Shown here: in pieces, positions 1,597 through 61,146 of the stretch
Position numbering within the stretch: the stretch's first letter is position 1
How the letters are laid out: each line of letters opens with the position of its first letter
Source: Prevotella sp.
Lineage (GTDB): Bacteria; Bacteroidota; Bacteroidia; Bacteroidales; Bacteroidaceae
Direction: 5' to 3'
DNA: 64,000 bases
NCBI GenBank assembly: GCA_017642485.1
Contig: JAGCPC010000116.1
Location: 42,471-106,470, forward strand
Position numbers and translations under genes: made by a program
The notes under the pieces: model-generated
Database searches by the model: none
Told to the model about the DNA's origin: nothing
The model's input: only the letters and a program-made list of their open reading frames with translations

Positions 1597-3456
1597 ATGG
1601 CAAAAGGTAACATTGGGGTTACAACAGAGAATATCTTCCCCGTCATCAAAAAGTTTCTCTACAGTGATCACGACATATTCCTGCGCGAGATGGTGAGCAA
1701 CGCCGTCGATGCTACGCAGAAACTCAAGACCCTCACCGAGAAAGGCGACTACAAGGGCGAAATTGGCGAGCTGAAGGTCAGCGTAAGTCTCGACAAGGAG
1801 GCTGGCACACTCACATTCTCAGACAACGGCATTGGCATGACGGAGGATGAGATAGACCGCTATATCAACCAGATAGCATTCTCAGGCGTGACGGACTTCC
1901 TCGACAAGTATAAGGACAACGCCAATGCTATCATAGGACACTTCGGACTGGGATTCTACTCAAGTTTCATGGTGGCTGACAAGGTGGATATCATAACAAA
2001 GTCATATAAGGACGACGCACAGGCTGTGAAGTGGTCGTGCGATGGTTCGCCTGAATACGAGATAGAGCCTGCCGAGAGGGCTGATAGGGGTACTGACATA
2101 GTGCTCCATATAGCTGAGGACTGCAAGGAATTTCTTGAGGAGAGTAAAATCACCGAACTGCTCAACAAGTACTGCAAATTTATGGCTGTGCCTGTAGTGT
2201 TCGGCAAGAAGAAGGAGTGGAACTCTGACGAAAAGAAGATGGTAGAGACCGCTGAGGACAACGTGATAAACTCTACCGAGCCTCTGTGGACCAAGCAGCC
2301 CTCAACGCTGAAGGATGAGGACTACAAGCAGTTCTACTCTACACTGTACCCTATGCAGGATGAGCCCCTGTTCTGGATACACCTGAACGTCGATTTCCCA
2401 TTCCACCTGACGGGCATACTCTACTTCCCACGTGTGCAGTCAAACCTCGACTTGCAGCGCAACAAGATACAGCTATACTGCAACCAAGTGTTTGTAACAG
2501 ACCAGGTGGAGGGTATCGTGCCTGAATTCCTCACCCTGCTGCATGGCGTAATAGACTCACCAGACATACCGCTCAATGTGAGCCGTTCGTACCTGCAGAG
2601 CGATGCCAACGTAAAGAAAATATCAAGCTATATCACCAAGAAGGTGGCTGACAGGCTCAGCGGCATATTTAAGGCCGACCGCAAGGACTACGAGGAGAAA
2701 TGGGACTCGCTGAAGGTGTTCATCAACTACGGCATGCTGACGGAGGAGAGTTTCTACGACCGTGCCAAGGACTTTGCCCTGTTCAAAGATACTGAGGGCA
2801 AGCACTTCACCTTCGAGGAGTACAAGACCCTCATCAAGGACGAGCAGACTGATAAAGATGGCACACTCGTATATCTCTATGCCAACGACAAGGACGAGCA
2901 ATATACCTACATCGAGGCTGCCAAGGCTAAGGGCTACAGCGTGCTCATGTTCGATGGGCAGTTGGACAACGCCACTCTGGGACTCTTCGAGCAGAAGTTT
3001 GAGAAGTGCCGCTTCACTCGCGTAGATGGCGACATACTGGAGCGCCTGATACAGAAAGAGGACGTGAAGAAAGTGGAGCTGAGCAAGGAGGACAGTGACA
3101 AACTGACAGAGGCATTCAAGGCAAAACTGCCACAGATGGACAAGGTGACATTCAACGTGGAGATACAGGCCCTCGGTGAGACGGCTGCACCAGTGATGTT
3201 CACACAGTCGGAGTACATGCGCCGTATGAAGGACATGTCACGCTACCAGAGCGGAATGGCATTCTACGGTCAGATGCCTGACTCCTACAACCTCATACTC
3301 AATAGCGACAACGCTGTCATAAAGTCGGTAATCGCTGATACTGACAAGGTTGAGACTATATCACAGCTCATCGACCTCGCACTGCTGCAAAACGGTATGC
3401 TCAAGGGCGAAGCGTTGGATAAGTTCCTCAAGAGAAGCGTAGAGTTGCTGAAGTAA
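1597..3456 (+). CDS. htpG: Hsp90 chaperone HtpG
   Basis: LYSDHDIFLREMVSNAVDA, DNGIGMT, IGHFGLGFYS, LNVSRSYLQ. Confidence 0.97.
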   Translation: MAKGNIGVTTENIFPVIKKFLYSDHDIFLREMVSNAVDATQKLKTLTEKGDYKGEIGELKVSVSLDKEAGTLTFSDNGIGMTEDEIDRYINQIAFSGVTDFLDKYKDNANAIIGHFGLGFYSSFMVADKVDIITKSYKDDAQAVKWSCDGSPEYEIEPAERADRGTDIVLHIAEDCKEFLEESKITELLNKYCKFMAVPVVFGKKKEWNSDEKKMVETAEDNVINSTEPLWTKQPSTLKDEDYKQFYSTLYPMQDEPLFWIHLNVDFPFHLTGILYFPRVQSNLDLQRNKIQLYCNQVFVTDQVEGIVPEFLTLLHGVIDSPDIPLNVSRSYLQSDANVKKISSYITKKVADRLSGIFKADRKDYEEKWDSLKVFINYGMLTEESFYDRAKDFALFKDTEGKHFTFEEYKTLIKDEQTDKDGTLVYLYANDKDEQYTYIEAAKAKGYSVLMFDGQLDNATLGLFEQKFEKCRFTRVDGDILERLIQKEDVKKVELSKEDSDKLTEAFKAKLPQMDKVTFNVEIQALGETAAPVMFTQSEYMRRMKDMSRYQSGMAFYGQMPDSYNLILNSDNAVIKSVIADTDKVETISQLIDLALLQNGMLKGEALDKFLKRSVELLK

Positions 3457-3461
3457 AATTG

Positions 3462-3625
3462 AAAATTGAAGATTGAAAATTGAGAATTATGATTACTAAC
3501 AGTTGTCTTCCTGTTCTACACAGCCGACATGGAGTCTGTGGAACAACCTTGTACCACATCGTACAAAAATGTCTGTTAAGGGTGGCAATGCTAATCATAA
3601 TTTTCAATTTTCAATTTTCAATTTT
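3462..3625. repeat. 34-bp inverted repeat built from 7-mer (AAAATTG / CAATTTT) arrays
   Basis: 3462-3495 versus reverse complement of 3592-3625: 32/34 match. Confidence 0.9.
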
Positions 3626-4856
3626 CTATATCTGCAGGGCCCAGCGCCACACTGTGTATGCTGACGACATAGGAACAGTGCAGGTGGTGGCAGGCACACG
3701 ATGGCAGGAGGTGCCCATCATAACCCTTGGAGGCAACGAGAAGGTGCACATATCGTTCGACCAACTGTCACACGAGTATCATCGCTACACATACAGCGTG
3801 GTGCATCTGGACAAGGACTGGCAGGAGACGGAAGACCTGACATCGGCAGACTACATAAGGGGATTTCGTAGCGGACTCACCATAGAGGACTGCGAGGAGT
3901 CAATAGGAACCACACAGAACTATACACACTACCAATTGCAGTTGCCCAACAGAGACTGCCGTATCACCATGTCGGGCAACTACCGTGTGGATATCTATGA
4001 CGATAACGAAAACGATAACAAAAACGATGGGAAGGTGCTGTCGGTGTATTTCCTCGTCAACGAGGATATCATCAACGTAGGACTCAACGTCACTGGCGAT
4101 ACCGACATCGACGTGAGGCGCAGCCACCAGCAAGTGACGGTGAAGGCCGACTACAGTCCGCTGAAGGCTACCAATCCGCGTGAGCAGATAACGGGCTACG
4201 TGATGCAAAACTACCGATGGGACAATATAGTAAGACTGCCCAACCCCACCAGCATCAACCAACAGTATATGGAGTGGCGCCACTGCAGAGACCTCATATA
4301 CGACGGCGGTAATGAGTATCATAAATTTGAGATACTCGACATACACCGCAACTCCCTGAACGTAGAAAACAACACATGGGACCGTACCACCGAGACATGG
4401 CACACATGGGTGTGGCCCGACTACCGACGTACGGCATACGTATATGACGAGGTACCTAAGGGTGCCTTCTACATACGCAATTCCTACAACAGCGAGAATG
4501 ACATCACCTCGGAGTATGTCATAGCACACTTCACACTACAGACGGAAGAGCCATTCCCCTACCCCGTTTATATAGACGGAATGTGGAGGGTTGTTAACGA
4601 AAACGATAACGATAATGGGAACAGATATCGCATGAAGTACTCTCAGGAACAGAGAGCCTACACATGTGAGATACCATTAAAATACGGATATTATTCTTAC
4701 CAGTATATATGCCAACGTCCTGACGGAACCACAGTTACACCTCCCACCGAAGGCTCGTTCTACGAAACTCACAACATATATACCACCTTATTCTACTACC
4801 GAGGCATACTCGATCGTGCCGACCGCTTAGTCGGCGTCTTCACTCTTAAACTCTAA
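3489..4856 (+). CDS. DUF5103 / type IX secretion system plug-like protein (start uncertain: 3489 or 3588)
   Basis: Signal peptide ending RA-Q; ISFDQL, YTHYQLQLPN, SGNY, GGNEY, LKYGYYSYQY, EGSFYETHN motifs; lies downstream of htpG. Confidence 0.75.
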   Translation: MITNSCLPVLHSRHGVCGTTLYHIVQKCLLRVAMLIIIFNFQFSIFYICRAQRHTVYADDIGTVQVVAGTRWQEVPIITLGGNEKVHISFDQLSHEYHRYTYSVVHLDKDWQETEDLTSADYIRGFRSGLTIEDCEESIGTTQNYTHYQLQLPNRDCRITMSGNYRVDIYDDNENDNKNDGKVLSVYFLVNEDIINVGLNVTGDTDIDVRRSHQQVTVKADYSPLKATNPREQITGYVMQNYRWDNIVRLPNPTSINQQYMEWRHCRDLIYDGGNEYHKFEILDIHRNSLNVENNTWDRTTETWHTWVWPDYRRTAYVYDEVPKGAFYIRNSYNSENDITSEYVIAHFTLQTEEPFPYPVYIDGMWRVVNENDNDNGNRYRMKYSQEQRAYTCEIPLKYGYYSYQYICQRPDGTTVTPPTEGSFYETHNIYTTLFYYRGILDRADRLVGVFTLKL

Positions 4857-5117
4857 GTGCATCTGTCTCACCTTGGCAGAGCGAGGGTTGATGCGATACC
4901 ATCCCCTCTTATCCATCCTTTTTACCGGCGAACCACTCAGGGTGCTCTCCCTGTGTAGGTAGTGGGCTACCTCATCGTACATCTTCTCCTTAGACAGGGG
5001 CTCGAAAAGGGAGTTGCGCATATTAAACACGTTTAATGCGATACGACGCAGAGGCATACCCTTTGGCCCTACTTCGTCAAGCACCATCAATATCTCGTGT
5101 TCGCAATCGACCCTCAT
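4827..5117 (-). CDS. hypothetical protein (small, possible winged helix)
   Basis: ORF MRVDCEHEILMVLDEVG...RGWYRINP; 3' end overlaps the neighbouring gene. Confidence 0.6.
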   Translation of the reverse strand: MRVDCEHEILMVLDEVGPKGMPLRRIALNVFNMRNSLFEPLSKEKMYDEVAHYLHRESTLSGSPVKRMDKRGWYRINPRSAKVRQMHLEFKSEDAD

Positions 5118-6501: not shown

Positions 6502-7911
6502 ATGTCATTAATAAAATCCATATCAGGCATCCGCGGCACAATAGGCGGACAGACAGGAGATACACTGAATCCCCTCGATATCGTAAAATTCACCTCTGCG
6601 TACGCTACATTTATACGCAAGTCAACAACTAATGGTAGCAACAAGATTATAGTAGGCAGAGATGCACGCATATCAGGTGAGATGGTAAAGAACGTGGTAT
6701 GCGGTACGCTGATGGGAATGGGATACGACGTCATCAACATCGGACTCGCATCAACACCCACCACCGAACTCGCCGTAACGATGGCAGGAGCCGACGGTGG
6801 CATCATAATAACAGCATCGCACAATCCACGTCACTGGAATGCCCTAAAGTTGCTCAATAGCAAAGGAGAGTTTCTTACTGCCGCTGACGGCAACGAGGTA
6901 CTGTCAATAGCAGAAGAGGAGGCATTTGAATATGCCGATGTGGACCATATGGGCAAATACACCGAGGAGAGTTTTGACGAGAAGCACATCGATGCCGTCA
7001 TGAACCTCAAACTCGTCGATGCAGAGGCGATAAAGAAGGCTGGTTTTAACGTAGTGGTTGACTCCATCAACTCCGTGGGAGGACTGATACTCCCCGCCCT
7101 ACTCGACCGCCTCGGTGTGAAGCACACCTTCCTCAACGGAGAAGTGAACGGTGACTTCCAGCACAACCCAGAACCCCTTGAGAAAAACCTCACGGGCATA
7201 ATGTCGAAACTCAAAGAGGGGGGCTACGACCTCGGTATCGTGGTAGATCCTGATGTGGACAGACTGGCATTTATATGCGAGGATGGCACTATGTACGGCG
7301 AGGAATATACACTAGTAAGCGTGGCTGACTACATACTCAGCAAGATGCAAGAGGATCCTGCTCACCCAGCACTCAACACGGTATCAAACCTATCATCAAC
7401 ACGTGCGCTGCGTGATGTGACAGAGAAATATGGAGGCACCTACACAGCCGCTGCCGTGGGCGAGGTAAACGTGACGACAAAGATGAAGGAAGTGGGTGCC
7501 GTAATAGGTGGCGAAGGAAACGGCGGAGTGATATACCCCGACAGCCACTATGGCAGAGATGCCCTGGTAGGTATAGCACTATTCCTGAGTCTGTTGGCAG
7601 AGAAGAATCAGAAGGTCAGCGGACTACGCAAGACATTCCCCGAGTACTTTATCGCAAAGAATCGCATAGACCTGACACCTGACACCGATGTGGACGCTAT
7701 ACTGCTTAAAGTAAAAGATATGTACAGCGCAGATAAAGAGGTGGCAGTTAATGATATAGATGGTGTAAAATTGGACTTCCCAGATAAGTGGGTACACCTT
7801 AGAAAATCAAACACCGAACCTATCATACGTGTATATAGCGAAGCACACTCCATGGAAGAGGCTGAGGAGATCGGCAAAAAGATAATGGACGTGGTTTATA
7901 GTATGGTGTAA
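6502..7911 (+). CDS. glmM: phosphoglucosamine mutase
   Basis: MSLIKSISGIRG, TASHNP, DPDVDR, GGEGNGG. Confidence 0.93.
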   Translation: MSLIKSISGIRGTIGGQTGDTLNPLDIVKFTSAYATFIRKSTTNGSNKIIVGRDARISGEMVKNVVCGTLMGMGYDVINIGLASTPTTELAVTMAGADGGIIITASHNPRHWNALKLLNSKGEFLTAADGNEVLSIAEEEAFEYADVDHMGKYTEESFDEKHIDAVMNLKLVDAEAIKKAGFNVVVDSINSVGGLILPALLDRLGVKHTFLNGEVNGDFQHNPEPLEKNLTGIMSKLKEGGYDLGIVVDPDVDRLAFICEDGTMYGEEYTLVSVADYILSKMQEDPAHPALNTVSNLSSTRALRDVTEKYGGTYTAAAVGEVNVTTKMKEVGAVIGGEGNGGVIYPDSHYGRDALVGIALFLSLLAEKNQKVSGLRKTFPEYFIAKNRIDLTPDTDVDAILLKVKDMYSADKEVAVNDIDGVKLDFPDKWVHLRKSNTEPIIRVYSEAHSMEEAEEIGKKIMDVVYSMV

Positions 7912-7980
7912 CGAAAGGTCGAAACATCGTCATAACGAAATAACGGAATATCGACATTTCGATATAACGACATAACGAAG
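7909..7980 (+). repeat. degenerate 8-mer array (TAACGA[A/C]A consensus), 9 units
   Basis: CG invariant every 8 nt starting at the glmM stop codon. Confidence 0.85.
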
Positions 7981-8044: not shown

Positions 8045-8118
8045 AGCCTCTTGTCGGATTCGAACCAACGACCCCGAGATTACAAATCACGTGCTCTGGC
8101 CAACTGAGCTAAAGAGGC
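8045..8118 (-). tRNA. tRNA-Thr(TGT)
   Basis: GCCTCTTTAGCTCAGTTGG...TTTGTAA...GGTTCGAATCC...AAGAGGC cloverleaf; CCA not encoded. Confidence 0.96.
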
Positions 8119-8122
8119 GGGT

Positions 8123-8216
8123 GGGCAGCTACTTACATCGCACCGCTACAACCAAGTACCTTTGCTATGTTCCCATCCTGGAGGATTCCGAGGGAGCTGG
8201 TCGTGCAAGACTGCCC
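8123..8216 (-). ncRNA. ffs: signal recognition particle (4.5S) RNA
   Basis: GGGCAG...CTGCCC terminal helix; helix-8-like CAGGATGGGAACATAGCA with GGAA tetraloop. Confidence 0.85.
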
Positions 8217-8272
8217 GTATTGTTTGCCTATTGAAGAGCGACAAAAGAGGGTCACTCTCAGATTTTGCGAAT

Positions 8273-8935: not shown

Positions 8936-8942
8936 GAGAACA

Positions 8943-25418: not shown

Positions 25419-26396
25419 TTACGACACCTTGTTTTGAGGCTCTCCCTTGATGAACGAAACCACGTTTTCTATTGCTATTTTCATCAGTCGTTCACGTGCC
25501 GCGAGACTTGCCCATGCTATATGTGGAGTGATATGACAATTGCGTGCCGTGAGCAGTGGCGAACCGCTGACGGGTGGTTCTTCTGTCAGCACGTCGATAC
25601 CTGCAGCATATATCCTACCCTCATTCAGGGCAAGCGCAAGCGCCTCTTCGTCCACCAACGGTCCGCGTCCGGTATTTATTATGATAGCCGAGTGCTTCAT
25701 CATGGCGAGATGCTCACTATTTATAATATGCTTAGTGGATGGCGTCAGCGGACAGTGCAGGCTCAGCACATCGGCACTACGAAACAGTTCATCCAACGTT
25801 TCCACCTTATTTATATATGTAGGCAATTCCTTCTGCGATTTGCTGGTAAAGGCTATTACGTTCATGCCGAGGGAATGGGCTATTTCTGCAGTGGCACGTC
25901 CTGTGTTGCCCAGTCCTACTATGGCAAAGTTCTTGCCAGCCAACAATATCTGTGGCGTTAGGGTGAAGGTGAAATCGGGACAACTGCCCCACTCTCCTCT
26001 ATGTACCGCCTCGTCATGAGCAGCTATATTGTTGGTGATGTGTAGCAGATGGGCTATGGCGAACTGTGCCACCGACTGAGTACTATAGGCTGGTATATTG
26101 GTTACCACTATGTCTCGCTTTCTTGCTTCCTCTACGTCAACCACATTATATCCTGTGGCGAGTACTCCGATATATTTCAGTCTTGGTAGTTGTTCTAGGA
26201 CAGCCTTGTCAAACACCACTTTGTTTGTCAGCACCATATCGGCATCCTTCGCACGCTCCACAGTAAGTTCTGCTGACGTGCGGTCATACTTCTCAAACAC
26301 CACCTTCTCGCCATCGGCATCGGTGATATTATACCAAGGTTCCCAGGATATGTCGCCCGGATTGGCTGCATAGCCATCCATTTCTACTATCTTCAT
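25419..26396 (-). CDS. D-2-hydroxyacid dehydrogenase (glycerate dehydrogenase-like)
   Basis: GLGNTG, INTGRG, DVLTEEP, TPHIAWA. Confidence 0.92.
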   Translation of the reverse strand: MKIVEMDGYAANPGDISWEPWYNITDADGEKVVFEKYDRTSAELTVERAKDADMVLTNKVVFDKAVLEQLPRLKYIGVLATGYNVVDVEEARKRDIVVTNIPAYSTQSVAQFAIAHLLHITNNIAAHDEAVHRGEWGSCPDFTFTLTPQILLAGKNFAIVGLGNTGRATAEIAHSLGMNVIAFTSKSQKELPTYINKVETLDELFRSADVLSLHCPLTPSTKHIINSEHLAMMKHSAIIINTGRGPLVDEEALALALNEGRIYAAGIDVLTEEPPVSGSPLLTARNCHITPHIAWASLAARERLMKIAIENVVSFIKGEPQNKVS

Positions 26397-26399
26397 AGA

Positions 26400-26426
26400 G
26401 TTCAAAAGTTCAAGAGTTCAAAGGTT
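26400..26426 (+). repeat. 8-mer GTTCAAAA-family array, copy 1
   Basis: GTTCAAAAGTTCAAGAGTTCAAAGGTT, identical to 27450-27476. Confidence 0.9.
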
Positions 26427-26436
26427 CCCGTTCACG

Positions 26437-26799
26437 TTAACGTTCCTGTCCGCTTTCCCACTCGTTCCACTCTTTCAGCGCCTGTTGCCAGTCAGTGCTT
26501 TCATCAGCAGTGGGTTGTTGTTGTGCCAAGTCCTTCTGGCGGTCGCGCTCACGTTTTGCCTTCATGTCGGCTATCGTGGCATCGTCGAGTATCTGTATCG
26601 CTCTGCGGTCTATGGCAGCATATAGTTCGTCTGGTCCGAAAGGCTTGCCCGGCTCATTGAAGTCGGAGATATTAAACTCAAACTCCGTCCTGAGCACATG
26701 ACGAATTTCCTTCTGTTTTAGTCGGTTCGCCTTGCACTTCATGCGTAGCAACTTTGCTATCTTTCCTATTTCGGTTTGTGAGTATTTGTTGCGGCCCAT
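26437..26799 (-). CDS. hypothetical protein
   Basis: 120-aa ORF in operon orientation. Confidence 0.7.
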   Translation of the reverse strand: MGRNKYSQTEIGKIAKLLRMKCKANRLKQKEIRHVLRTEFEFNISDFNEPGKPFGPDELYAAIDRRAIQILDDATIADMKAKRERDRQKDLAQQQPTADESTDWQQALKEWNEWESGQER

Positions 26800-26811: not shown

Positions 26812-26864
26812 TTATAGGAACTATAGTTACTATAGATACTATTGGCACTATAGCTACTATAGAT
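26812..26864. repeat. 9-mer ACTATAGNN array
   Basis: ACTATAGTT ACTATAGAT ACTATTGGC ACTATAGCT ACTATAGAT. Confidence 0.88.
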
Positions 26865-26871: not shown

Positions 26872-27447
26872 TTAGTATAGTAGCAGCAGTCCTGCGAAGG
26901 CAGCGTATGCTATCATGCGTATTGGGTTGATGTGCTTTATCTTTACCCCCACTATGGTAGCTATGAATATGAATATAGACACCCAGAAATGCCAGGGTGA
27001 CACGTCAAGCGAATTGAAGTTCTCGCTATTACACAAAAGCAGGGTTGCTGCAGCCATAAGTCCCACTATGGCAGGACGTAGTCCCATGAAGATGCTCTGC
27101 ACCACATTCGACTGCATATACTTCAGGAACAATTTGCTTATCATGAGCATCAGAATGAAACTCGGAAGTATGAGTGCGAAGGTAGCTATCAGACTACCAG
27201 CGACACCCATCAGCATACTACCCGTCTCATTGAGCAAAGTGGTATAGCCGCAATATGTGGCACTGTTGATGCCTATAGGTCCAGGGGTCATCTGCGATAT
27301 GGCGATGATGTTGGTAAACTCCGCCGACGACATCCACTTATGGCTCGCCACCACCTCATACTGTATTAGCGAGATGATGCCGTAGCCCCCTCCGAATCCG
27401 AAGAGGCCTATCTTGAAGAACGTATAGAATAACTGGAGGTATATCAA
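26872..27447 (-). CDS. short-chain chromate transporter (CHR) subunit
   Basis: FFKIGLFGFGGGY, SQMTPGPI. Confidence 0.9.
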   Translation of the reverse strand: MIYLQLFYTFFKIGLFGFGGGYGIISLIQYEVVASHKWMSSAEFTNIIAISQMTPGPIGINSATYCGYTTLLNETGSMLMGVAGSLIATFALILPSFILMLMISKLFLKYMQSNVVQSIFMGLRPAIVGLMAAATLLLCNSENFNSLDVSPWHFWVSIFIFIATIVGVKIKHINPIRMIAYAAFAGLLLLY

Positions 27448-27449
27448 AG

Positions 27450-27476
27450 GTTCAAAAGTTCAAGAGTTCAAAGGTT
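27450..27476 (+). repeat. 8-mer GTTCAAAA-family array, copy 2
   Basis: Identical 27-mer to 26400-26426. Confidence 0.9.
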
Positions 27477-27482
27477 TGAGAG

Positions 27483-28007
27483 TTATTCCGACGGCTTTAG
27501 GAACAAGCCATAGATGTAGCCACCTATGCCAGCGGCAAGGATGATGTAGATAGGGTTCACCCCCATTCCCCAGATAAGGAGTGCCGAGACGATGGGTATC
27601 CAACAGTTAAGCAGACTTATCTCAGCCTGCTTCATCATGTTGAAGGTAGGTATTGCCATCAGCGCAACAACCGCTGGACGTATGCCAGCAAATGTTGCAG
27701 CAACCCATGGCACTTCCTGAAACTTCTGGAAGAACATGGCGATAAGCAGTATGCAGAGAAGTGACGGTGCTACTGTACCCAATGTTGAGATCAGTGCACC
27801 CCTCACTCCACGCAACTTATAGCCTATGAAGATGGAGATATTTATGGCAAACACTCCCGGACAACTCTGCGCCACAGCTATGAGGTCGAGCAGTGTCTGC
27901 CTGTCTATCCACTTCTTCTTGTCCACCACCTCTGCCTCGATGAGGGGAATCATGGCATAACCACCACCTATGGTGAACATTCCTATTTTAAAGAAAGTCT
28001 TAAACAT
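27483..28007 (-). CDS. short-chain chromate transporter (CHR) subunit
   Basis: FFKIGMFTIGGGY, AQSCPG; start overlaps the purL stop. Confidence 0.9.
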   Translation of the reverse strand: MFKTFFKIGMFTIGGGYAMIPLIEAEVVDKKKWIDRQTLLDLIAVAQSCPGVFAINISIFIGYKLRGVRGALISTLGTVAPSLLCILLIAMFFQKFQEVPWVAATFAGIRPAVVALMAIPTFNMMKQAEISLLNCWIPIVSALLIWGMGVNPIYIILAAGIGGYIYGLFLKPSE

Positions 28008-31816: not shown

Positions 31817-31950
31817 ACAAAGTTACAATAAATAATTCATAATCCACAATTCATAATTCACAATTGCATCATAATTGCCATTTTTTAACAATGTAAAAGA
31901 AAAAACTATGCACTGTGAATTGTGAATTGTGAATTATTTTGTACCTTTGC
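31817..31950. promoter_or_regulatory. divergent purL/typA promoters separated by an inverted pair of 7-mer arrays
   Basis: TAACTTTG (minus, ~31818-31825) and TACCTTTG (plus, 31942-31949); AATTCA(C/T) array versus TGAATTG array. Confidence 0.7.
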
Positions 31951-31956: not shown

Positions 31957-32015
31957 TTTCGAATCTTCGAACTTTTGAACTTTTGAACTTTTAAACTTTT
32001 GAACCATTTAACTTT
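31957..32015 (+). repeat. 8-mer TTTTGAAC array in the typA 5' UTR
   Basis: CTTCGAAC TTTTGAAC TTTTGAAC TTTTAAAC TTTTGAAC CATTTAAC. Confidence 0.88.
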
Positions 32016-36288: not shown

Positions 36289-37641
36289 TTAATATTTAGA
36301 TTCCCTGTTATCAACAGGTTTTGCTACTGGAATACTTTTTAAGTCATCGCAGTCACCATTAGACCACCATAAAACAAGCTGTACGCTCGGCTTTTCGAGC
36401 ACTGCACCAAGAGGTTTAGCTCCATTAGCATGCTTGGCGTAGTAATCCTCTACGTCGTAAGTCCTTTTCTCTGCATTCCACGTTAAGTCGTATGAATACG
36501 GATCCCATAAAGCATAGCGGTGATAAAACACGTTTATCATAGTTGGCATACTGCGTTTCTTTTGGTTGGCAAGCATTTTGGCGTAGTTTATTATTCCGTC
36601 TATCGTATTAAGGTCAAGAGATCCGTCAGGCACCTCTATTATCTCCTCGCCTTTCTCTTCGCTCTCAGATTTTCCCTTATCAGATTCTTTCACACCAGAC
36701 TTTCCCTTATCAGATTCTTTCACACCAGACTTTCCCTTATCAGGGCTTTTTACATCAGTTTTTCCATTATCAGGGCTTTTTACGCCAGGCTTTCCCTTAT
36801 CAGGGCTTTTTACATCAGGTTTTCCATTCTGTGAAGCGTATATTTTGTTTACAGCATCAGCCGCATCTTTCATACTCACGCCATTTGCCAGTAGAGTATT
36901 AGTCAGTGAAATGCGCCACTTCTCCTCCGTGCTGTTACTATTCCTCTGCTTACTGTGTTTATCCATCTGGTACTTATATACCAGGTCGCTCACAGCCTGA
37001 GTCCAGTCCTTATAGTTCTCAAATATGGAACTCTTTACCATATCCGTCAAGTAGCTTATTGGGTTCACCTCCAAGTTTGCCACATTATTCAGTGCCTCCA
37101 GCGTACTTATAGGTATTATGGGGTTCTCGGTTTGTTTCGCTGCATTGAGTGCTTCCTGAAAACATGCGCCGATAGGGTTATCCAGTTTTTCGGTAATAAG
37201 GTCAACCACACCTCCTATCATCTTCGCCCCTCCGTTAGCCAGAAACTGGTCAGCCTTGTCTATGAGCGATGGATTTTGGTTAAACTTCTTGTACTCGGCA
37301 CGATAGTCTATCACTCCCTGTGAGTCAAGTGCCACATTCGAAGTCTTCGTCTGTCCATTCACGGTCTGGGTCACTTTCACTGACCTCGTACCAGCATACT
37401 GCAAGTACACAGTAGCCAGACTGTTGGTTATCTCTGTCGGCATACCATTGCCATTCACCCTTATGGTAGTCTGGTCCTTTCCCGTGTAGGTGATAGTTTC
37501 CACCGTGTTACCATAACCATAGTGCACCATAGTAAGTGAATTATTACTCTTGTCAAACGCCACCTCATTGTGTGGTTTCTGAGCTACCGTCACGCTGCAT
37601 ATTAACAACATACACGCGACTACCAAGCCTTTCTTTTTCAT
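36289..37641 (-). CDS. secreted hypothetical protein with decapeptide repeat linker
   Basis: Signal peptide ...VTVA-Q; GK(P/S/T)(D/G)VK(S/E)(P/S)D(K/N) about 5 times. Confidence 0.8.
   Translation of the reverse strand: MKKKGLVVACMLLICSVTVAQKPHNEVAFDKSNNSLTMVHYGYGNTVETITYTGKDQTTIRVNGNGMPTEITNSLATVYLQYAGTRSVKVTQTVNGQTKTSNVALDSQGVIDYRAEYKKFNQNPSLIDKADQFLANGGAKMIGGVVDLITEKLDNPIGACFQEALNAAKQTENPIIPISTLEALNNVANLEVNPISYLTDMVKSSIFENYKDWTQAVSDLVYKYQMDKHSKQRNSNSTEEKWRISLTNTLLANGVSMKDAADAVNKIYASQNGKPDVKSPDKGKPGVKSPDNGKTDVKSPDKGKSGVKESDKGKSGVKESDKGKSESEEKGEEIIEVPDGSLDLNTIDGIINYAKMLANQKKRSMPTMINVFYHRYALWDPYSYDLTWNAEKRTYDVEDYYAKHANGAKPLGAVLEKPSVQLVLWWSNGDCDDLKSIPVAKPVDNRESKY
36666..36828 (-). repeat. 30-bp intragenic tandem repeat (about 5.5 units)
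   Basis: TTTCCCTTATCAG(ATT/GG)CTTT... recurring every 30 nt. Confidence 0.9.
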
Positions 37642-39352: not shown

Positions 39353-39583
39353 CCTCAAAAGAAGCAAAAACAGAGGTTTGCAAACTCTATTTCTAACTTT
39401 TTTCAAGACATTTTCGGAATGACACTTTGTCACAAAAAGAGGGTGGTTTCTTACAATGTGTAAAAAGAAACGGGGAATTATAATATCGCAAACATTTCCC
39501 GAATTGATTTGGTAGTTCGGGATTTTTTGTGTACCTTTGCACCCTATATAAATAAGGTATAAAGTATAAAGTAAGAAAGAAAT

Positions 39584-40435: not shown

Positions 40436-40573
40436 AGCCCCCCTCCAGCTCCCCCCTTCAGGGGGAGAGAACAAAAACGAAACGCTTCGCTACGAAAACG
40501 AAGACGAAAACTATAGGAACTATAGAAACTATAGAAAACTATAGGTACTATAGGTACTATAGGAACTATAACC
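40436..40573 (+). repeat. composite junction: C/G-rich REP-like unit, AACGAA 6-mers, then ACTATAGNN 9-mer array (7 units)
   Basis: Directly visible between the hisG stop and hisD start. Confidence 0.88.
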
Positions 40574-41902: not shown

Positions 41903-41919
41903 TTTCCCAAACGACTAAA

Positions 41920-43314
41920 TTGTCTAAAGACGAATTACTCAACCTGCTGAGGCAAGAAGGGAGTGAGATGTCACTTCGTGAGAAAGTGCACCTCACCGTC
42001 CTGCTGAGCATACCAGCCATAATAGCACAGTTCTCATTCATCGCCATGCAGATGATTGACGCCGCCATGCTGGGACACCTCAGCACTGATGAGGCAGCTG
42101 CCGTAGGACTGGTATCGACCACGATATGGCTCTTTGGCGGACTGACATCTGCCTTTGCCAGTGGTTTTGCCGTGCAGGTGGCTCACCGCATAGGTGCAGG
42201 CGACAAGGTGGGGGCTCGAAGCGTGATAAGACAAGGACTGCTGTCGGGATTTGTCTTCGCCTGCCTGATGATGGCTATAGGACTGAGCATAGCGCCCCAC
42301 CTGCCCCACTGGCTCGGAGCATCACAGCATATATGCGACGAGGCATCGAAATACTTCAGCATCTTCTGTCTGGGCATACCGCTGATAGTGCTCAACGGAG
42401 TAGCGGCAGGCAGTCTGAGATGCTCTGGAAACATCAAGGTGCCGAGTATGCTGATGGTGATGATGTGCGTACTGGACGTGATATTCAACTACGTATTCAT
42501 CTTCATGCTCAACTGCGGAACGGCAGGTGCGGCATACGGCACCATAACGGCTTACTTCATCACCATGTGTGCTATGGTGTATGCCATGTCGGTAAGGGAC
42601 AAGGTGCTGAACTTCAGGCAGGATGCAGTTCTGAACTTCAAACCCAAACTGAAGATACTCAAGAAGACTTTCCGCATAGGATTTCCCATTGGGCTGGAGC
42701 GCGGAGTGACCTGTACGGCACAGATAGCGATATCATCAATCATCGCCCCATTAGGAAGCATCGCCATAGCCGCCAACACGTTTGGCATCAACATAGAGTC
42801 GCTGTGCTACATGCCTGGACACGGAATAGCCGAGGCTGCCACCACGCTGGTAGGACAGAGCAAGGGAGCCTCCAAGCGCAACCTGATGCACTCGTTTGCA
42901 TGGATATGTATGGCACTTGGCGTAAGCATCATGGCACTGATGGGACTGCTGATGTGGATGTTTGCCCCAGAGATGTTCAGCGTGATAACGCCAGACAGGG
43001 AGGTGATAGCCCTCGGCACGGAGATACTGCGCATAGAGGCATGGGCTGAACCAGGTTTTGCTGCTGCTATCATAGCATCGGCAGTATTTGTGGGAGCAGG
43101 CAAGACGCTCATACCGTCGTTGATGAACCTGGGCAGTATATGGGTAGTACGCGTATCGCTCACCCTCCTACTCGCCCCCACTATGGGCTTGCGTGGAGTG
43201 TGGATAGCAATGGCTATAGAACTCTGTTTCCGTGGATTGATATTCACCCTCAGACTCTGCACACGGAAGTGGTCGTTTATAAAGGATAGGAGTAAAAGAG
43301 GAGTTAAGAATTAA
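41920..43314 (+). CDS. MATE family efflux transporter
   Basis: About 12 TMs; IDAAMLGHL, AATTLVGQSKGA, MGLRGVWIA. Confidence 0.92.
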   Translation: MSKDELLNLLRQEGSEMSLREKVHLTVLLSIPAIIAQFSFIAMQMIDAAMLGHLSTDEAAAVGLVSTTIWLFGGLTSAFASGFAVQVAHRIGAGDKVGARSVIRQGLLSGFVFACLMMAIGLSIAPHLPHWLGASQHICDEASKYFSIFCLGIPLIVLNGVAAGSLRCSGNIKVPSMLMVMMCVLDVIFNYVFIFMLNCGTAGAAYGTITAYFITMCAMVYAMSVRDKVLNFRQDAVLNFKPKLKILKKTFRIGFPIGLERGVTCTAQIAISSIIAPLGSIAIAANTFGINIESLCYMPGHGIAEAATTLVGQSKGASKRNLMHSFAWICMALGVSIMALMGLLMWMFAPEMFSVITPDREVIALGTEILRIEAWAEPGFAAAIIASAVFVGAGKTLIPSLMNLGSIWVVRVSLTLLLAPTMGLRGVWIAMAIELCFRGLIFTLRLCTRKWSFIKDRSKRGVKN

Positions 43315-43344
43315 GAGTTAATAATTAAGAGTTAAGAAACTCCT

Positions 43345-44193
43345 ATGACAATAATAAGAGATAAGGAATTTGGAGGCGAGCGCCCACTGTACTGTTCTCA
43401 TGACCTGCGTCTTGAGAACGTGACAATACACGTTGGCGAGTCGTCTATAAAGGAATCAAGCAATATAGAGGCAGAGGACTGCACCTTTGAAGGGAAGTAT
43501 GTGTTTTGGGAAACATACGGTTTCAAGATAAACAACTGCTACTTCAATGAGAGTGCACGCTCGAGCCTGTGGTACTCCAAGGACTGCCTCATGACAAACT
43601 GCACCGTAGATGCGCCAAAGATGTTTCGCAGAATGGAGAATATACGTGTGGAGAACACCGTGTTCAACAAGGGCGAGGAGATGCTGTGGGACTGCAACAA
43701 CGTAAGGCTGAAGGACGTTACGATAAAGAACTGCGACTATCTCTTCATGCACACTGACAACATCAGGATAGACAACTACCGTCAGGACGGCAACTACGCC
43801 TTTCAGTACTCCAAGAACGTGGAGATACACCATGCGGTGATCAACTCCAAGGATGCCTTTTGGGAGGCTGAGAACGTTACACTCGTTGATTGCGAGGTGA
43901 ATGGCGAATACCTTGCCTGGTATGGTAAGAACATACGCTTGGTTCGTTGCCACCTCACTGGAGAGCAGCTGCTATGCTATGTTGATGGTCTGACGATGGA
44001 GGACTGCACATTCGGCGAGGATGCCAACCTGCTCTTTGAATACTCCACCGTCAATGGCAATATAAAAGGCGACGTAACATCAATAAAGAACCCCACCTCA
44101 GGTACTATCACCGTAGAGGGAAAGATAGGCGAACTGATATTCGACGAAAACCAGAAGCAGCCAGCTGATGCAGTGGTAAAAGAACTACAATAG
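43345..44193 (+). CDS. DUF3737-family beta-helix protein
   Basis: FGGERPLY, GESSIKE, APKMFR, GNYAFQY, SKDAFW, GEYLAW. Confidence 0.88.
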   Translation: MTIIRDKEFGGERPLYCSHDLRLENVTIHVGESSIKESSNIEAEDCTFEGKYVFWETYGFKINNCYFNESARSSLWYSKDCLMTNCTVDAPKMFRRMENIRVENTVFNKGEEMLWDCNNVRLKDVTIKNCDYLFMHTDNIRIDNYRQDGNYAFQYSKNVEIHHAVINSKDAFWEAENVTLVDCEVNGEYLAWYGKNIRLVRCHLTGEQLLCYVDGLTMEDCTFGEDANLLFEYSTVNGNIKGDVTSIKNPTSGTITVEGKIGELIFDENQKQPADAVVKELQ

Positions 44194-44230
44194 ATACTAT
44201 AGATACTATAGAACTATAGTCACTATAACG

Positions 44231-45394
44231 ATGAAATACTCTTTTGACAAAATAATCAACCGCATAGGCACAGACTCCTATAAGTATGACACACTCCCAA
44301 AAGAGGGTGGAAAGGGTCAACCTATAGCCCTGTGGGTGGCAGACATGGACTTCGAGACAGCGCCCTGCGTGATGCAGGCACTAAGGAAGCGCATGGAGCA
44401 CGGTTGCTTCGGCTATACCGCCGTGCCTGACTCGTTCTATCAAGCTACCATAGATTGGTTTGCCCGCAGGCATGGTTGGAAGGGCATAAAGAAGGAGTGG
44501 TTCATATACACCTCTGGCGTAGTACCAGCCATATCGGCTATCATCAAGGCGATGACAACGGCTGGCGACAGCGTTCTGCTTCATAACCCTGCTTACAACT
44601 GTTTCTTCTCAAGCATACGCAACAATGAATGTAAGACTGAGCGTGTTGGGGTATTCGACGATATAGAAGAGAAGTGCAGCAACCCTAACGTAAAAGTTCT
44701 CCTGCTGTGCAATCCTCACAACCCTACGGGGCATGTATGGACTGAGGCAGAACTGACACGTATCGCCGAGGTATGCCAACAACATGATGTCTTTGTCATT
44801 GCCGACGAGATACATTGTGAGTTCATCAATCCTAACATAGGCAAGCGCTACATACCTTTTGCCACTATTGCAGAAAAAGTTAACGCTAACCTTAACCTTA
44901 ACGTTAACCCTTTGCGCTATGCCGTCTGTGTGTCGCCCTCTAAGGCATTCAATATAGCAGGACTGCAGATAGCCAACATCATCTGTCCTGATGACAGCAT
45001 ACGCCGACGCATAGACAGGGCAATAAACATCAATGAGGTGTGTGACGTAAACCCATTTGGCGTAATAGCCCTGCAAGCCGCCTACACAGAGGAAGGAGAA
45101 GAATGGCTGACAACTCTGAACGAATATATCTATGCCAACTATGACTATGCGGTGGCTTACATCAAAGAGCACTTCCCCCAATGGAAGCCCTACCCTCTCG
45201 AAGGCACATACCTCCTATGGGTTGATACAGGAGAAGATGCTGATGCTCTATGCCAAAGGTTTCAACAGGAGTGCAACGTATTCATCAGTCCTGGCTCCAT
45301 GTACGGCGACAACCGCCATATACGCATCAACCTCGCCACCCAGCGTGCAAGGCTCGCTGAGAGTTTTGAAAGAATATATAGTATTGGCAAATAG
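44231..45394 (+). CDS. MalY/PatB-family PLP-dependent C-S lyase
   Basis: LWVADMDF, LCNPHNPTG, DEIH, SPSKAFNIAGL, EGTYLLW. Confidence 0.92.
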   Translation: MKYSFDKIINRIGTDSYKYDTLPKEGGKGQPIALWVADMDFETAPCVMQALRKRMEHGCFGYTAVPDSFYQATIDWFARRHGWKGIKKEWFIYTSGVVPAISAIIKAMTTAGDSVLLHNPAYNCFFSSIRNNECKTERVGVFDDIEEKCSNPNVKVLLLCNPHNPTGHVWTEAELTRIAEVCQQHDVFVIADEIHCEFINPNIGKRYIPFATIAEKVNANLNLNVNPLRYAVCVSPSKAFNIAGLQIANIICPDDSIRRRIDRAININEVCDVNPFGVIALQAAYTEEGEEWLTTLNEYIYANYDYAVAYIKEHFPQWKPYPLEGTYLLWVDTGEDADALCQRFQQECNVFISPGSMYGDNRHIRINLATQRARLAESFERIYSIGK

Positions 45395-45436
45395 TATTGT
45401 CTTTAACTTCTTTAACTTCTCTAACTTCTAAAAGAA

Positions 45437-46471
45437 ATGAAATCCCTTCAAGAACTTACAAGACCAAACATCTGGTCATTGGCACCATACTCAAGTGCCC
45501 GCAACGAATACAGCGGACATGCGGCACACGTATTTCTGGATGCAAACGAGAATCCATACAACAATCCATACAACCGCTATCCTGACCCACTGCAGGAGGA
45601 GGTGAAGGAGAAGTTGAGCAAGATAAAGGGGGTGCCTGCAGAGTGCATATTCCTGGGTAATGGCTCGGACGAGGCTATCGACCTCGTATATCGTTGTTTC
45701 TGCGAACCTCAGAAGGATAACGTGGTGGCAATATGCCCTACATACGGCATGTATGAGGTGTGTGCCGACATAAATAACGTGGAATATCGCAACGTGATGC
45801 TCGACGAAAACTACCAGGTGTGTGCCGACAAACTACTTGCTGCTTGCGACAGCAATACCAAGGCGATATGGATATGTAGTCCCAACAACCCCACGGGCAA
45901 CAGCATCAACCGCGAGGAGATCATCAAGGTCATCGAGGCGTTTGATGGATTGGTGATAGTTGACGAGGCATATATCGACTTCTCACGCGAAGTGACTATC
46001 TCGAGGTTGCTCGGCAAATACACTAACCTCATAGTACTCCAGACCCTCTCCAAGGCATGGGGCTCGGCTGCCATACGTCTCGGAATGGCGTTCGCCTCAA
46101 AGGAGATAATCAGTATATACAATAAGGTGAAATACCCTTACAACGTTAATCTCCTTACTCAGCAGCAGGCTCTCAACCGCCTCTCCAACACCTACGATGT
46201 GGAGCAGTGGGTAAAGATGCTACTGCAGGAGCGAAGCCGTATGCTCAGCGCCTTCGCCGAACTGAAAATCTGTGAGAAGGTCTATCCCACCGATGCAAAT
46301 TTCTTCCTTGCTAAGGTTACTGATGCACAGAAGATATACGACTACCTCGTAGAAAAGGGCATCATCGTGCGCAACCGCACTCGCATCTCATTGTGTCAGA
46401 ACTGCCTGCGTATCACCATCGGCACCAGAGACGAAAACAACGAACTACTCGGAGCACTGAGATCTATTTGA
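45437..46471 (+). CDS. hisC: histidinol-phosphate aminotransferase
   Basis: [28 protein letters not shown]...RLG. Confidence 0.96.
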
Positions 46472-46493
46472 TAGATTATAGATTATAGATGAC

Positions 46494-47615
46494 ATGATAA
46501 AAAGACTTGCTGTAGTAATCATAATTTGTCAATTTGTCAATTTGTTAATTTGTCAATTTGCAATAGCACAGGACATGCAGTCCATCTCTCTCCGCAAGGG
46601 CAATATGGAGATGAGTGTCATAAACTATGGTGCACGTATCCAAACACTTAAGTTTGCTGGACAGGATATGGTGCTGGGTTTTGACACCCTCAGTCACTAT
46701 GCTCAGAAGAAACAAAACTTTGGTGCTATAGTGGGTCGCTACATAGGACGTATCATCGGTGGAAAACTGCCTATCAGTTACCTTAACGAAACGCCTAACC
46801 ATAACAAAAGATCTACCTGCAAGGGGAAGGGGGAGGCTTTCATCCAACTCCAAGTGGGCAATAACGGCGACTGCTCTCATGGTGGCACCCCTGGTTTCTC
46901 ACAACAGTATTGGACCATCACCTCTCATAATGACAGCACCTGCAGTCTGCGATTCGTATCACCTGATGGTGAGAACGGTTTTCCTGGTGAACTGACTCTT
47001 GATGTCACCTATACCCTGCAACATGATGCACTGCGTATAGACTACAGCGCCACAACCACTAAGCCTACTGTGCTCAATCCTTCGAATCACTCTTTCTTTA
47101 ATCTCAGCGCCAACCTCGGCGACACCGTTCTTGACGAACTGCTGTGGATAAACAGCGATAGTACCGCCCTCTACAATAGTAGCAAACAGGTGACAGGCAA
47201 ACTCGCCAACGTCACTGATACACCTTTCGACTTCCGTCAACCCACCGCTATCGGTTCTCGCATAGGCAGTAACAACGAGCAGCTGCTCGTCACAAAGGGT
47301 TATGACCACTGCTATAAGTTGCGCAATAGTCGCCCACTCGTTACTCCTGTGGCACGTCTTAGCGACCTATCTACTGGCATATCAATGGAGGTGCTCACTA
47401 CCGAACCTGCCATGCAGATATATACCGCCAACAGCCACAATGGTTCACTGAAGGGTAAGCAAGGCATACCTTACATCAAGCAGAACGCAATATGCTTCGA
47501 GACTATGCACTTCCCTGATTCGCCAAACAACCCTCAGTGGCCTACAACCCTGCTCCGACCGGGTGAAACTTTCCGTAGCACAACAATCTATCGATTCTCC
47601 CTTATATCAGATTAA
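46494..47615 (+). CDS. galM: aldose 1-epimerase family protein with signal peptide
   Basis: HGG, DGENGFPG, NHSFFNL, GYDHCY, CFETMHFPD. Confidence 0.85.
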   Translation: MIKRLAVVIIICQFVNLLICQFAIAQDMQSISLRKGNMEMSVINYGARIQTLKFAGQDMVLGFDTLSHYAQKKQNFGAIVGRYIGRIIGGKLPISYLNETPNHNKRSTCKGKGEAFIQLQVGNNGDCSHGGTPGFSQQYWTITSHNDSTCSLRFVSPDGENGFPGELTLDVTYTLQHDALRIDYSATTTKPTVLNPSNHSFFNLSANLGDTVLDELLWINSDSTALYNSSKQVTGKLANVTDTPFDFRQPTAIGSRIGSNNEQLLVTKGYDHCYKLRNSRPLVTPVARLSDLSTGISMEVLTTEPAMQIYTANSHNGSLKGKQGIPYIKQNAICFETMHFPDSPNNPQWPTTLLRPGETFRSTTIYRFSLISD

Positions 47616-47660
47616 TCAGAATACTCAGATTACTCAGATTACTCAGAACACCCAGACTAA
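47607..47660 (+). repeat. 9-mer TCAGATTAC array (6 units)
   Basis: Spans the galM stop to just before ndk. Confidence 0.85.
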
Positions 47661-50640: not shown

Positions 50641-50680
50641 CTTTTAACTTTTGAACCTTTGAACCATTGAACCTTTTAAC
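50641..50680. repeat. 8-mer TTTTGAAC-family array at the purA/hisS junction
   Basis: CTTTTAAC TTTTGAAC CTTTGAAC CATTGAAC CTTTTAAC. Confidence 0.88.
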
Positions 50681-51947
50681 CCCTAACTATGGTCTGTTCG
50701 CGATCTGGACCGATAGAGATTATAGTAATAGGAGTCTCAAGCTGTTCCTCGAGGAACTTGATGTAGTTTTTAAATGCTTCTGGGAACTGCTCTTCACTTG
50801 TAAACTGTGTCATGTCAGTTTGCCAGCCAGGAAGTTCCTTATATACAGGTTCTACACCTGACTCTATATTGTAAGGGAAGTCTGGCGTCTCTACACCATT
50901 CACCTTATATGCTACGCATGCTTTGATAGTTGGGAAGGTGTCAAGCACGTCACTCTTCATCATGATGAGTTGAGTTACGCCATTTACCATGATAGAATAG
51001 CGTAATGCTACGAGGTCTATCCATCCACAACGACGTTCTCTACCTGTCACAGCACCATACTCGTGACCGATATCACGCATCTTCTTACCTGTCTCGTCAA
51101 ACAGTTCTGTGGGGAACGGACCTGCCCCAACACGGGTGCAGTAAGCCTTCATGATACCATACACTTCTCCTATTTTGTTAGGGCCGAGTCCCAAACCGGT
51201 GCATGCACCAGCACAGATGGTATTGGAAGAGGTTACAAAGGGATAAGAACCGAAGTCCACATCAAGCATAGTGCCCTGAGCACCTTCACACAGAACAGAC
51301 TTGCCAGACTTCAGTGTCTTGTTTATCTCGTGCTCTGAGTCCACCAACTGGAACTGACGCAGATACTCTATACCCTCCATCCAATGTTTTTCTACATCGG
51401 TGATATCATAATCGGTATAGCCCATCGCCCTCAGCGTTTCCTCATGCTTAGCCTTGTGCGCAGCGTACTTCTCTTCAAAGTTCTCTAAGATATCACCTAC
51501 GCGAAGTCCTGTGCGTGCTATCTTGTCAGAATATGTAGGACCTATGCCCTTTCCTGTAGTACCTACTTTATTCTTACCCTTAGAGGCTTCTATCGCTGCA
51601 TCCAGCACACGGTGCGTAGGCATTATGAGGTGAGCCTTCTTTGATATGTGCAGGCGTGATTTTAGGTCATGTCCGCTCTTCTCGAGGTCTTTTGCCTCAT
51701 CCATAAAGAGGTCGGGAGCCAGCACCACACCGTTGCCTATGATATTGATCTTTCCACCCTGGAATATACCTGAAGGAATAGATCTGAGTACATACTTCTC
51801 GCCATTAAACTCTAATGTATGACCTGCATTAGGTCCTCCCTGAAAACGAGCTACAACATCATACTTCGGCGTGAGCACGTCAACCACCTTACCTTTACCT
51901 TCATCGCCCCATTGCAGTCCAAGGAGCACATCTACTTTTCCTGTCAT
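50676..51947 (-). CDS. purA: adenylosuccinate synthetase
   Basis: QWGDEGKGK, GGPNAGHT, EGAQG, TGRERRCGW. Confidence 0.97.
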   Translation of the reverse strand: MTGKVDVLLGLQWGDEGKGKVVDVLTPKYDVVARFQGGPNAGHTLEFNGEKYVLRSIPSGIFQGGKINIIGNGVVLAPDLFMDEAKDLEKSGHDLKSRLHISKKAHLIMPTHRVLDAAIEASKGKNKVGTTGKGIGPTYSDKIARTGLRVGDILENFEEKYAAHKAKHEETLRAMGYTDYDITDVEKHWMEGIEYLRQFQLVDSEHEINKTLKSGKSVLCEGAQGTMLDVDFGSYPFVTSSNTICAGACTGLGLGPNKIGEVYGIMKAYCTRVGAGPFPTELFDETGKKMRDIGHEYGAVTGRERRCGWIDLVALRYSIMVNGVTQLIMMKSDVLDTFPTIKACVAYKVNGVETPDFPYNIESGVEPVYKELPGWQTDMTQFTSEEQFPEAFKNYIKFLEEQLETPITIISIGPDREQTIVRG

Positions 51948-59616: not shown

Positions 59617-59717
59617 TGTTTAGTTTATTGTTTTATTGGTTAAGGCGGCAACATCTCCGCCACTATTGACAGTTTTTCTTCAGATGAGGGCAGGTGACTA
59701 TGCCATGCGGCACTCTC

Positions 59718-60251: not shown

Positions 60252-60259
60252 AGTTCGCG

Positions 60260-60760: not shown

Positions 60761-60816
60761 ACGCTGTATAGAGTTTTCTTTTTGTTAGTTTATTCTTTCG
60801 TGAAAAGGTGTACGGC

Positions 60817-61065
60817 TTAGAAAGAGCACAGCAGAGCAATAACCGCACCAAACAGTGCAACACCCTCGATGAGGGCTGCAGCAACGATCATGTTGGTAAA
60901 CAGTTTGTTCATCACCTCTGGCTGACGAGCCATAGCGTCCATAGCACTACCGCCAATCTTACCGATACCAATACCTGCACCGATAGCTGCGAGACCAGCG
61001 CCGAGACCAGCGCCCAACTTAGCAATACCTGCAGCTGCCTCAGCTGCCAAAATCATAGAAATCAT
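60817..61065 (-). CDS. atpE: ATP synthase c (probably H+-coupled)
   Basis: GAGIGIG, ARQPE, LIEGVA; lacks the Na+ signature Q...ES/T. Confidence 0.95.
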   Translation of the reverse strand: MISMILAAEAAAGIAKLGAGLGAGLAAIGAGIGIGKIGGSAMDAMARQPEVMNKLFTNMIVAAALIEGVALFGAVIALLCSF

Positions 61066-61106
61066 AGCCTTAAAGTTTTAATTATAAATTAGTTTATTAT
61101 TGTTAT

Positions 61107-61146
61107 TTTCGATAATTCGTAATGTCGTTATGACGTTATGTCGATA
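61107..61146 (-). repeat. 8-mer TAACGACA-family array (5 units)
   Basis: TATCGACA TAACGTCA TAACGACA TTACGAAT TATCGAAA directly after the atpB stop. Confidence 0.85.

Follow-up and report, generated by a model that had tools for sequence, protein, structure and literature searches.

The closest described counterpart of the elements considered here is the intervening sequence (IVS) of the Coxiella burnetii 23S rRNA that bears an open reading frame (ORF). According to the main text of PMC4990558, a four-helix-bundle ORF of the S23p type lies there inside terminal inverted repeats with a 28-bp stem, tandem heptamers upstream of the ORF start vary in copy number among strains, and the element is cut by RNase III. 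A second is furnished by the TAACTGA repeats of Beggiatoaceae, Cyanobacteria and Bacteroidetes, which the main text of MacGregor 2015 (PMC4679880) describes as runs of 2-6 heptamers that are patchily distributed among relatives, lie in one orientation before starts and in the other after stops or in ORFs, and have 'no mechanism evident'; heptamer repeats form a known class, for which slippage has been proposed as the cause (Mrazek 2007 as cited in the same text). A third is Avd of the diversity-generating retroelements (DGRs), which the accessible part of 10.1101/2023.10.23.563531 presents as a pentameric barrel, likened to S23 proteins, that binds RNA together with a reverse transcriptase (RT). 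Here we examine a 64,000-nucleotide stretch of a Prevotella sp. genome (contig JAGCPC010000116.1, positions 42,471 to 106,470; hereafter the window), in which degenerate tandem arrays of 6-9-bp units recur at gene junctions, and report that most of the array families match the arms of cassettes, found elsewhere in the same genome or in relatives, in which inverted arrays enclose a gene for a four-helix-bundle protein, and that several arrays retain the inner end motif of such an arm.

The assembly under study (GCA_017642485.1, below G000, its contigs bearing C-numbers) is a metagenome-assembled genome (MAG) of 2.09 Mb and 79% completeness; other G-numbers denote related genomes, and L-numbers loci taken from other genomes. 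The gene content of the window, with a type IX secretion system (T9SS) plug, BamK and the his and atp operons, is that of a Bacteroidota chromosome. Using Tandem Repeats Finder (TRF) rows and direct reading of the sequence, we found the arrays of the original prediction at, or within a few bases of, where it had placed them (Table 1). Its figure of at least 15 was an undercount, as a genome-wide scan recovered hundreds: 639 arrays of period 5-12 in G000 (~630 of period 6-12), with 477 at a score >=14 versus none in each of two 100-bp-block shuffles. The 431 arrays of period 7 use 54 units, the two commonest accounting for 70 and 54 arrays, and unit families are, as predicted, common to loci far beyond chance. 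The suggested likeness to the short tandemly repeated repetitive (STRR) sequences of cyanobacteria is likewise apt in that dispersed short tandem arrays, mostly of period 7, occur in excess of chance.

Five genes of G000, all outside the window, match TIGR02436 (four-helix-bundle, S23p/Avd-like), and inverted arrays enclose four of them, in accord with an earlier guess that such genes might be flanked by arrays. The units are CAGTTCA on C14, TTAAGAG on C175, AAAATTG on C2 and a 9-mer on C26, so that a single genome holds several cassettes with different units; the fifth gene, of a suffix type, has a one-sided 9-mer. The neighbors of the cassettes seen are protein genes, and none lies inside an rRNA gene. 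The protein encoded on C14 has matches in the PDB to two entries with five chains each, 2RLD (E 2.5e-37) and 2GSC (E 0.006). Three of these units recur in the window: TTAAGAG at 43301, AAAATTG at 3455/3599, where the 3455 arm shares both unit and inner motif with the C2 cassette, and the 9-mer family at 45395, where the inner end of the arm is identical to that of the C26 cassette. The two commonest solo families of the genome are themselves the units of resident cassettes. Further window families match arms in relatives, namely the GTTCAAAA 8-mer (L221), ATAGAT-type 7-mers (L220) and a hexamer (L064), while the CAGATTACT and CTATAG 9-mers match arrays at suffix-type genes; in all, at least ten unit families, with periods of 6-9, are linked to cassette arms. 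Beyond the repeats themselves, a non-repeated inner motif, ATGATT[AT][CG], adjoins 36 of 536 arrays versus one control window.

A TIGR02436 gene is present in 94 of 121 genomes of the genus. We tested 114 ORFs, most of them taken from the 150 top scorers among 317 matches: the flanks are inverted at p<0.01 in 93, and 16 give a better score as direct repeats, several of the latter reading left-spacer-right-gene-right. Across phyla, inverted flanks occur at 79 of 85 testable clade-I ORFs (160 loci), 73 with period 7, and period and unit largely track the protein clade in a quick tree of 83 rows. Small GC-rich palindromes lie between the repeat units of many arms (the left arm on C26; L080, L096, L133 and L138; window 40476-40492), and certain suffix-type proteins (L231, L237, L247 and L252) have translated repeat arrays as their C-termini.

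Gene calls were home-made, a second model having replaced the first, and start sites and the number of in-gene arrays are therefore approximate. With this proviso, the 628 arrays that were placed comprise 344 at co-oriented, 48 at convergent and 46 at divergent junctions, 43 at contig ends and 147 inside genes. About 22% of the junctions of each type hold an array, the density being 3.1 per kb in co-oriented spacers versus 0.078 per kb in coding DNA. The original prediction saw most arrays as touching stop codons and proposed a process acting at gene ends. All eight contacts that it named (htpG, glmM, MATE, DUF3737, hisC, galM, purA and atpB) are real, and patB and chrA provide others. Other sites lie elsewhere: 3599 and 46523 are read in frame within predicted signal peptides, 4000, 4595 and 44887 are inside genes, 31839/31908 and 31957 occupy a divergent promoter or 5' region, and 26400 and 40510 are at gene starts; moreover, 3455/3599 and 31839/31908, listed as AT-rich 7-mers, are inverted pairs. 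Genome-wide, 187 of 350 arrays are near stops versus 122 expected (first gene model), and in roomy junctions only 31 of 105 versus 19. With about a quarter of all arrays in called coding sequence, a process aimed at gene ends, as proposed, is not supported: the bias to stops is moderate and may reflect selection, and selection for tolerated insert sites explains the pattern at least as well.

The arrays are nevertheless polar, with one strand of a unit adjoining stops and the other adjoining starts. Thus, AAAATTG is found seven times at stops and never at starts, and its complement twice at stops and 16 times at starts; among 89 in-gene heptamer arrays, 75 have stops on the antisense strand only and four on the sense strand. 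Unit positions are also unevenly constrained, in that nearly all base changes in the 9-mer family are at positions 3 and 9, and variation falls mainly on A positions in AAAATTG and AGAAGTTAA, but not in CAGTTCA or AAACCTC. Together with the median copy number of 4.6, this uneven constraint fits a sequence-specific reader with five subunits.

Some arrays are translated. A homolog spanning the site was available among the loci compared for 17 of the 147 in-gene arrays; 12 of the 17 add at least four residues in frame, and two (in atpE and hisC) are ordinary conserved sequence. Right arms of the AATTTTC type number 97, and 17 of them are translated as part of the first ~37 codons, where inner motif and units encode VIIIFNFQFSIFNS-like stretches at the expected signal-peptide core, suggesting that arms of this type recurrently form such cores. 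In the window, the T9SS plug gene has the arm at 3589..3626 as its predicted signal-peptide core; this arm belongs to a gene-less inverted pair (3455-3626) computed to fold as a hairpin of -65.2 kcal/mol (z -8.2). A radA-like gene on another contig (C141:2672-3100) has both arms and a hexamer spacer in frame.

Orthologous junctions vary among relatives, as had been anticipated. At 18 alignable of 21 sites, the sister species G091 has the same family at three, another unit at five and none at ten. Across nine species, the MATE-DUF3737 junction carries five different arrays (G000, G210, G329, G194 and G282) or none (G016, G091 and G149), and the DUF3737 boundary of G003 shows a different unit. 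At the galM signal-peptide anchor there are 8-mers in G000, 7-mers in G316 and no arm in G091. Strains at 96-99% identity are present in runs X5, X8 and X15. Strains ~96% identical, compared from sequencing runs on contigs only, show differences of entire units or are missing part of a site; one such difference is an 18-nt, two-unit insertion in the array over the DUF3737 stop in run X15. For 110 cassette ORFs of relatives, both neighbors are present in G000 in 66 cases and adjacent there in 56; among the matches listed, G000 has at these junctions nothing, a solo arm or a cassette. The C47:10203 junction of G000 is empty, and in many species (L031-L056) it bears four-helix cassettes whose 8-mer units differ while the arms stay complementary. 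No target-site duplication was seen by eye at empty and filled junctions, the relatives used being only 75-85% identical, and none of 400 genomes provided a relative above ~85% identity for exact insertion ends. A scan of 17 loci in related genomes returned no four-helix gene at the MATE-to-ndk junctions.

A unit census over the 121 genomes, in which kin are not independent, associates bursts of a unit with its cassette. CAGTTCA has 53 matches in G000 and 38 in G016, both carriers of that cassette, at most two in three other genomes and none in the sister G091, whose corresponding junction bears a different unit. GTGAGAG is present in all three predicted carriers (26, 25 and 8 matches) versus 17 of 121 genomes overall. 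All 16 TAGTTCA-positive genomes have a TIGR02436 match, with bursts in G045 (52) and G081 (26), both of which possess that cassette.

We hold with about even confidence that the window arrays are single cassette arms that reached new sites as copied pieces of 25-60 bases, through a process that would depend on the matching four-helix-bundle protein. Whole cassettes could hardly have sat in the genes that now read arms in frame; therefore single arms likely insert as short pieces, with selection setting their survival. The uneven constraint on unit positions, the matches to five-chain structures, the median of 4.6 copies, the binding of RNA by Avd together with an RT and the build of the Coxiella IVS lead us to favor RNA-guided copying with a polymerase in trans. 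Under such a scheme the pentameric protein would bind its own repeat (~4-5 units), probably as RNA freed when the hairpin of the arms is cut; such cutting by RNase III is documented for the IVS (PMC4990558) and is extended to the present cassettes by analogy, an RNase III-like gene of G000 scoring below the curated cut-off. The protein might then hand the repeat to the polymerase, much as its relative Avd does with RT, whereupon selection would retain the harmless inserts, namely those just after stops, before starts, in loops and in signal peptides, and slippage would vary their copy number. A bolder version, which we offer tentatively and regard as more doubtful than probable, is that these are repeat-writing selfish modules, in which each Avd-like pentamer recognizes its own 6-10-base unit and writes 4-5 units at hundreds of sites with the borrowed polymerase.

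Several observations weigh against this explanation. No polymerase or nuclease was found tied to the cassettes, and the only RT found in G000 (on C174) appears group II intron-like and has no arrays. GTGAGAG is matched 21 times in G050 (90% complete), a genome without a hit to TIGR02436; as G072 and G099 hold TAGTTCA at the cassette only, the cassette accompanies bursts without guaranteeing them. For AAACCTC, AAAGTAT and the 8-mer of 7909/61107 we found no matching cassette, the MAG being 79% complete; suffix-type genes have inverted flanks in only 8 of 31 cases; and a second inner motif, GACAAT, is weakly enriched (18 versus 9). A code relating protein residues to unit bases is at most suggested: a test on independent pairs (two pairs) showed nothing, the register being ambiguous for flipped cassettes. 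Finally, the four-helix protein may be a passenger, because unrelated GxxExxY genes have similar inverted flanks of 8-10-mers in 21 of 27 cases. With regard to these genes (L141-L170), a broken copy occurs in G000, as do the same arms in gene-less form (C111:178-417 and C70:2200-2560); as a source of the 9-mer at 47607 they were rejected, the suffix-type four-helix genes matching better.

In one alternative, every solo array is a scar, left where an entire cassette lost its gene and one arm, whether through recombination between direct arms or through a deletion stimulated by the hairpin. Gene-less inverted pairs (spacers 19-160 bp), the left-spacer-right-gene-right cassettes, the cassette polarity kept by solo AAAATTG arms and the empty or solo-arm state in G000 of relatives' cassette junctions, among the matches listed, all speak for it. 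We nonetheless consider it unlikely: ~630 arrays face five genes, a whole cassette would likely break the radA-like gene, the other conserved genes and the signal peptides that hold arms in frame, and the related loci scanned between MATE and ndk lack the four-helix gene. Events at the DNA level that need no protein form another candidate: gene conversion or illegitimate recombination would be anchored by the abundant arms, slippage would homogenize the units, and the four-helix gene would be a passenger. The switch between 7-mers and 8-mers at one galM anchor, the proximity of 102 of 628 arrays to another within 40 nt, the whole-unit length changes among strains and the shared layout of the GxxExxY genes agree with this, but it leaves unexplained both the uneven constraint on unit positions and the burst of a unit in carriers of the cassette when a sister species shows none, and we judge it distinctly unlikely.

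The arrays could also be sites that the host has selected for binding by the four-helix proteins, which would read them as a post-transcriptional regulon, an idea proposed, with other candidate proteins, in the main text of MacGregor 2015 (PMC4679880) for the TAACTGA repeats. Invariant unit positions, ~4.6 copies for a five-chain protein and the fixed polarity to stops and starts are in its favor; that a single junction may bear any of five units or be empty, that most sites are missing in the sister species and that many arrays are in-frame inserts makes it, to our mind, quite improbable. Even less can be said for an origin of the arrays in situ as ordinary microsatellites, made by slippage and independent of any cassette. 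Heptamer repeats are a known class for which slippage has been proposed, and copy number does vary by whole units, but the small set of shared units, the inverted pairs around one gene family and the species-specific bursts are foreign to such an origin, which is largely refuted by the non-repeated inner end motif shared among arrays and which we regard as scarcely probable.

Table 1. Tandem arrays of the window, with their contexts and comparisons (dashes join the genes of a junction)
Feature	Position	Strand	Context	Comparison
Left arm (AAAATTG)n	3455..3488	+	begins in htpG stop, then inner motif ATGATTAC
Right arm (inner motif and AATTTTC repeats)	3589..3626	+	inverted partner of the 3455 arm
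Hexamer array, in frame	4000..4028	+	within T9SS plug gene
Hexamer array, in frame	4595..4615	+	within T9SS plug gene
Degenerate 8-mer array	7909..7979	+	from glmM stop; TRF clear part 7932-7979	different 7-mer in G091
GTTCAAAA 8-mer array and hexamers	26392..26445	.	2-hydroxyacid dehydrogenase start	unit of L221 arms; missing in G016, present in G091
ACTATAGNN 9-mer array	26812..26864	.	after chrB stop, 7 nt away	related CTATAG-core arrays flank suffix-type genes L233, L241
GTTCAAAA 8-mer array	27444..27484	.	chrA-chrB	other units in G016 and G091
Inverted 7-mer pair CAATTCA / TGTGAAT, 48-bp spacer	31825..31935	.	purL-typA divergent region
GAACTTTT 8-mer array	31957..32015	+	upstream of typA start
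AAAGTAT 7-mer array	39552..39573	+	upstream of hisG
Compound site: hexamer array, then ACTATAGNN array	40470..40570	+	hisG-hisD	empty in G091; part missing in one strain of run X5
Short right-arm remnant, GTCGTTTA 8-mer family	41903..41916	+	hisD-MATE	matches downstream arms of L033, L042, L047
Left arm (TTAAGAG)n	43301..43338	+	over MATE stop
ACTATAGNN array	44186..44227	+	over DUF3737 stop
Hexamer array, in frame (NLNLNVN)	44887..44909	+	within patB
Right arm, 9-mer family, opening with inner motif TATTGTC	45395..45431	+	directly 3' of patB stop
ATAGATT 7-mer array	46471..46490	+	hisC stop	related unit on L220 arms; same family in G316
Right arm, inner motif GTAATCAT and AATTTGTC 8-mers	46515..46564	+	in frame, predicted galM signal-peptide core
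CAGATTACT 9-mer array	47607..47656	+	over galM stop	related arrays flank suffix-type genes L231, L232, L237
GTTCAAAG 8-mer array	50641..50681	-	first unit supplies purA stop	junction empty in G016, G091
Degenerate 8-mer array	61107..61146	-	directly after atpB stop	related array in G016, G091

The window has other features as well. Rfam gave only a tRNA and a Bacteroidales small signal recognition particle (SRP) RNA, on the minus strand at 8045-8223 just downstream of the glmM array, and no match to the Gut-1 RNA motif (RF01706). A 120-aa ORF at 26437-26799, without a Pfam or NCBIfam match, sits between two different arrays and is found also in G016 and G091, and a 450-aa ORF at 36289-37641, with no family match, contains a 30/60-nt tandem repeat at 36666-36828. 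Hairpins of the form CCCCTCC...GGGGAG share junctions with arrays and also come and go, as at 40437-40467 in the window, at hisG-hisD, hisD-MATE and patB-hisC in L026 (G016), and in L021; they may be linked to DUF559 endonucleases. In line with the original prediction, no candidate enzyme was detected in the window among 53 ORFs scanned with NCBIfam and 13 with Pfam (5 of the 13 without a family).

Miniature inverted-repeat transposable elements, repetitive extragenic palindromic elements and Rickettsia palindromic elements are short, non-autonomous inverted-repeat elements at gene ends, the last of which insert in frame. Unlike these, the arms described here consist of short tandem units, and single arms probably spread alone; no transposase was found with the cassettes, no genome-wide transposase search having been made. 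Neither a linked RT nor a template repeat/variable repeat pair was seen, the latter without a separate search, and variation is not confined to adenine in all families, which sets the cassettes apart from Avd and the DGRs as portrayed in the accessible part of the report cited above. With the Coxiella IVS, as described in the main text of PMC4990558, they share a four-helix-bundle (S23p/TIGR02436) ORF within inverted repeats able to form a long stem; they differ from it in lying between protein genes, in having several families per genome and in hundreds of gene-less or single-arm derivatives, some of them translated. The arrays resemble the TAACTGA repeats, other heptamer long simple sequence repeats and STRRs in their polarity to starts and stops and in their patchiness, although PMC4679880 treats one unit and does not refer to four-helix proteins in the main text, as against at least ten families tied to arms here. 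In literature searches limited largely to open-access main texts, the arm-gene-arm cassette was found in print only as the 23S rRNA IVS (PMC4990558), and no paper was found on the general cassette, on translated arms or on the spreading of single arms to new sites. New here are the multi-family bursts, the census of units against cassette presence, the replacement of units at one anchor and the signal-peptide cores.

Heptamer repeats and the S23p/TIGR02436 family are two old puzzles without a mechanism, which this genome ties together, and the link predicts that the presence of a cassette should be accompanied by a burst of the unit it carries. The inserts reshape host proteins, with about one-fifth of gene junctions and ~110 genes of one species affected. 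If the protein reads and helps to write its unit, this would constitute a new means by which genomes and proteins change. Should the arrays indeed be the work of selfish modules, older units would be displaced at their anchors and novel stretches of protein, such as signal peptides and loops, would come into being; bacterial heptamer repeats, so far unexplained, would thereby be given a general origin.

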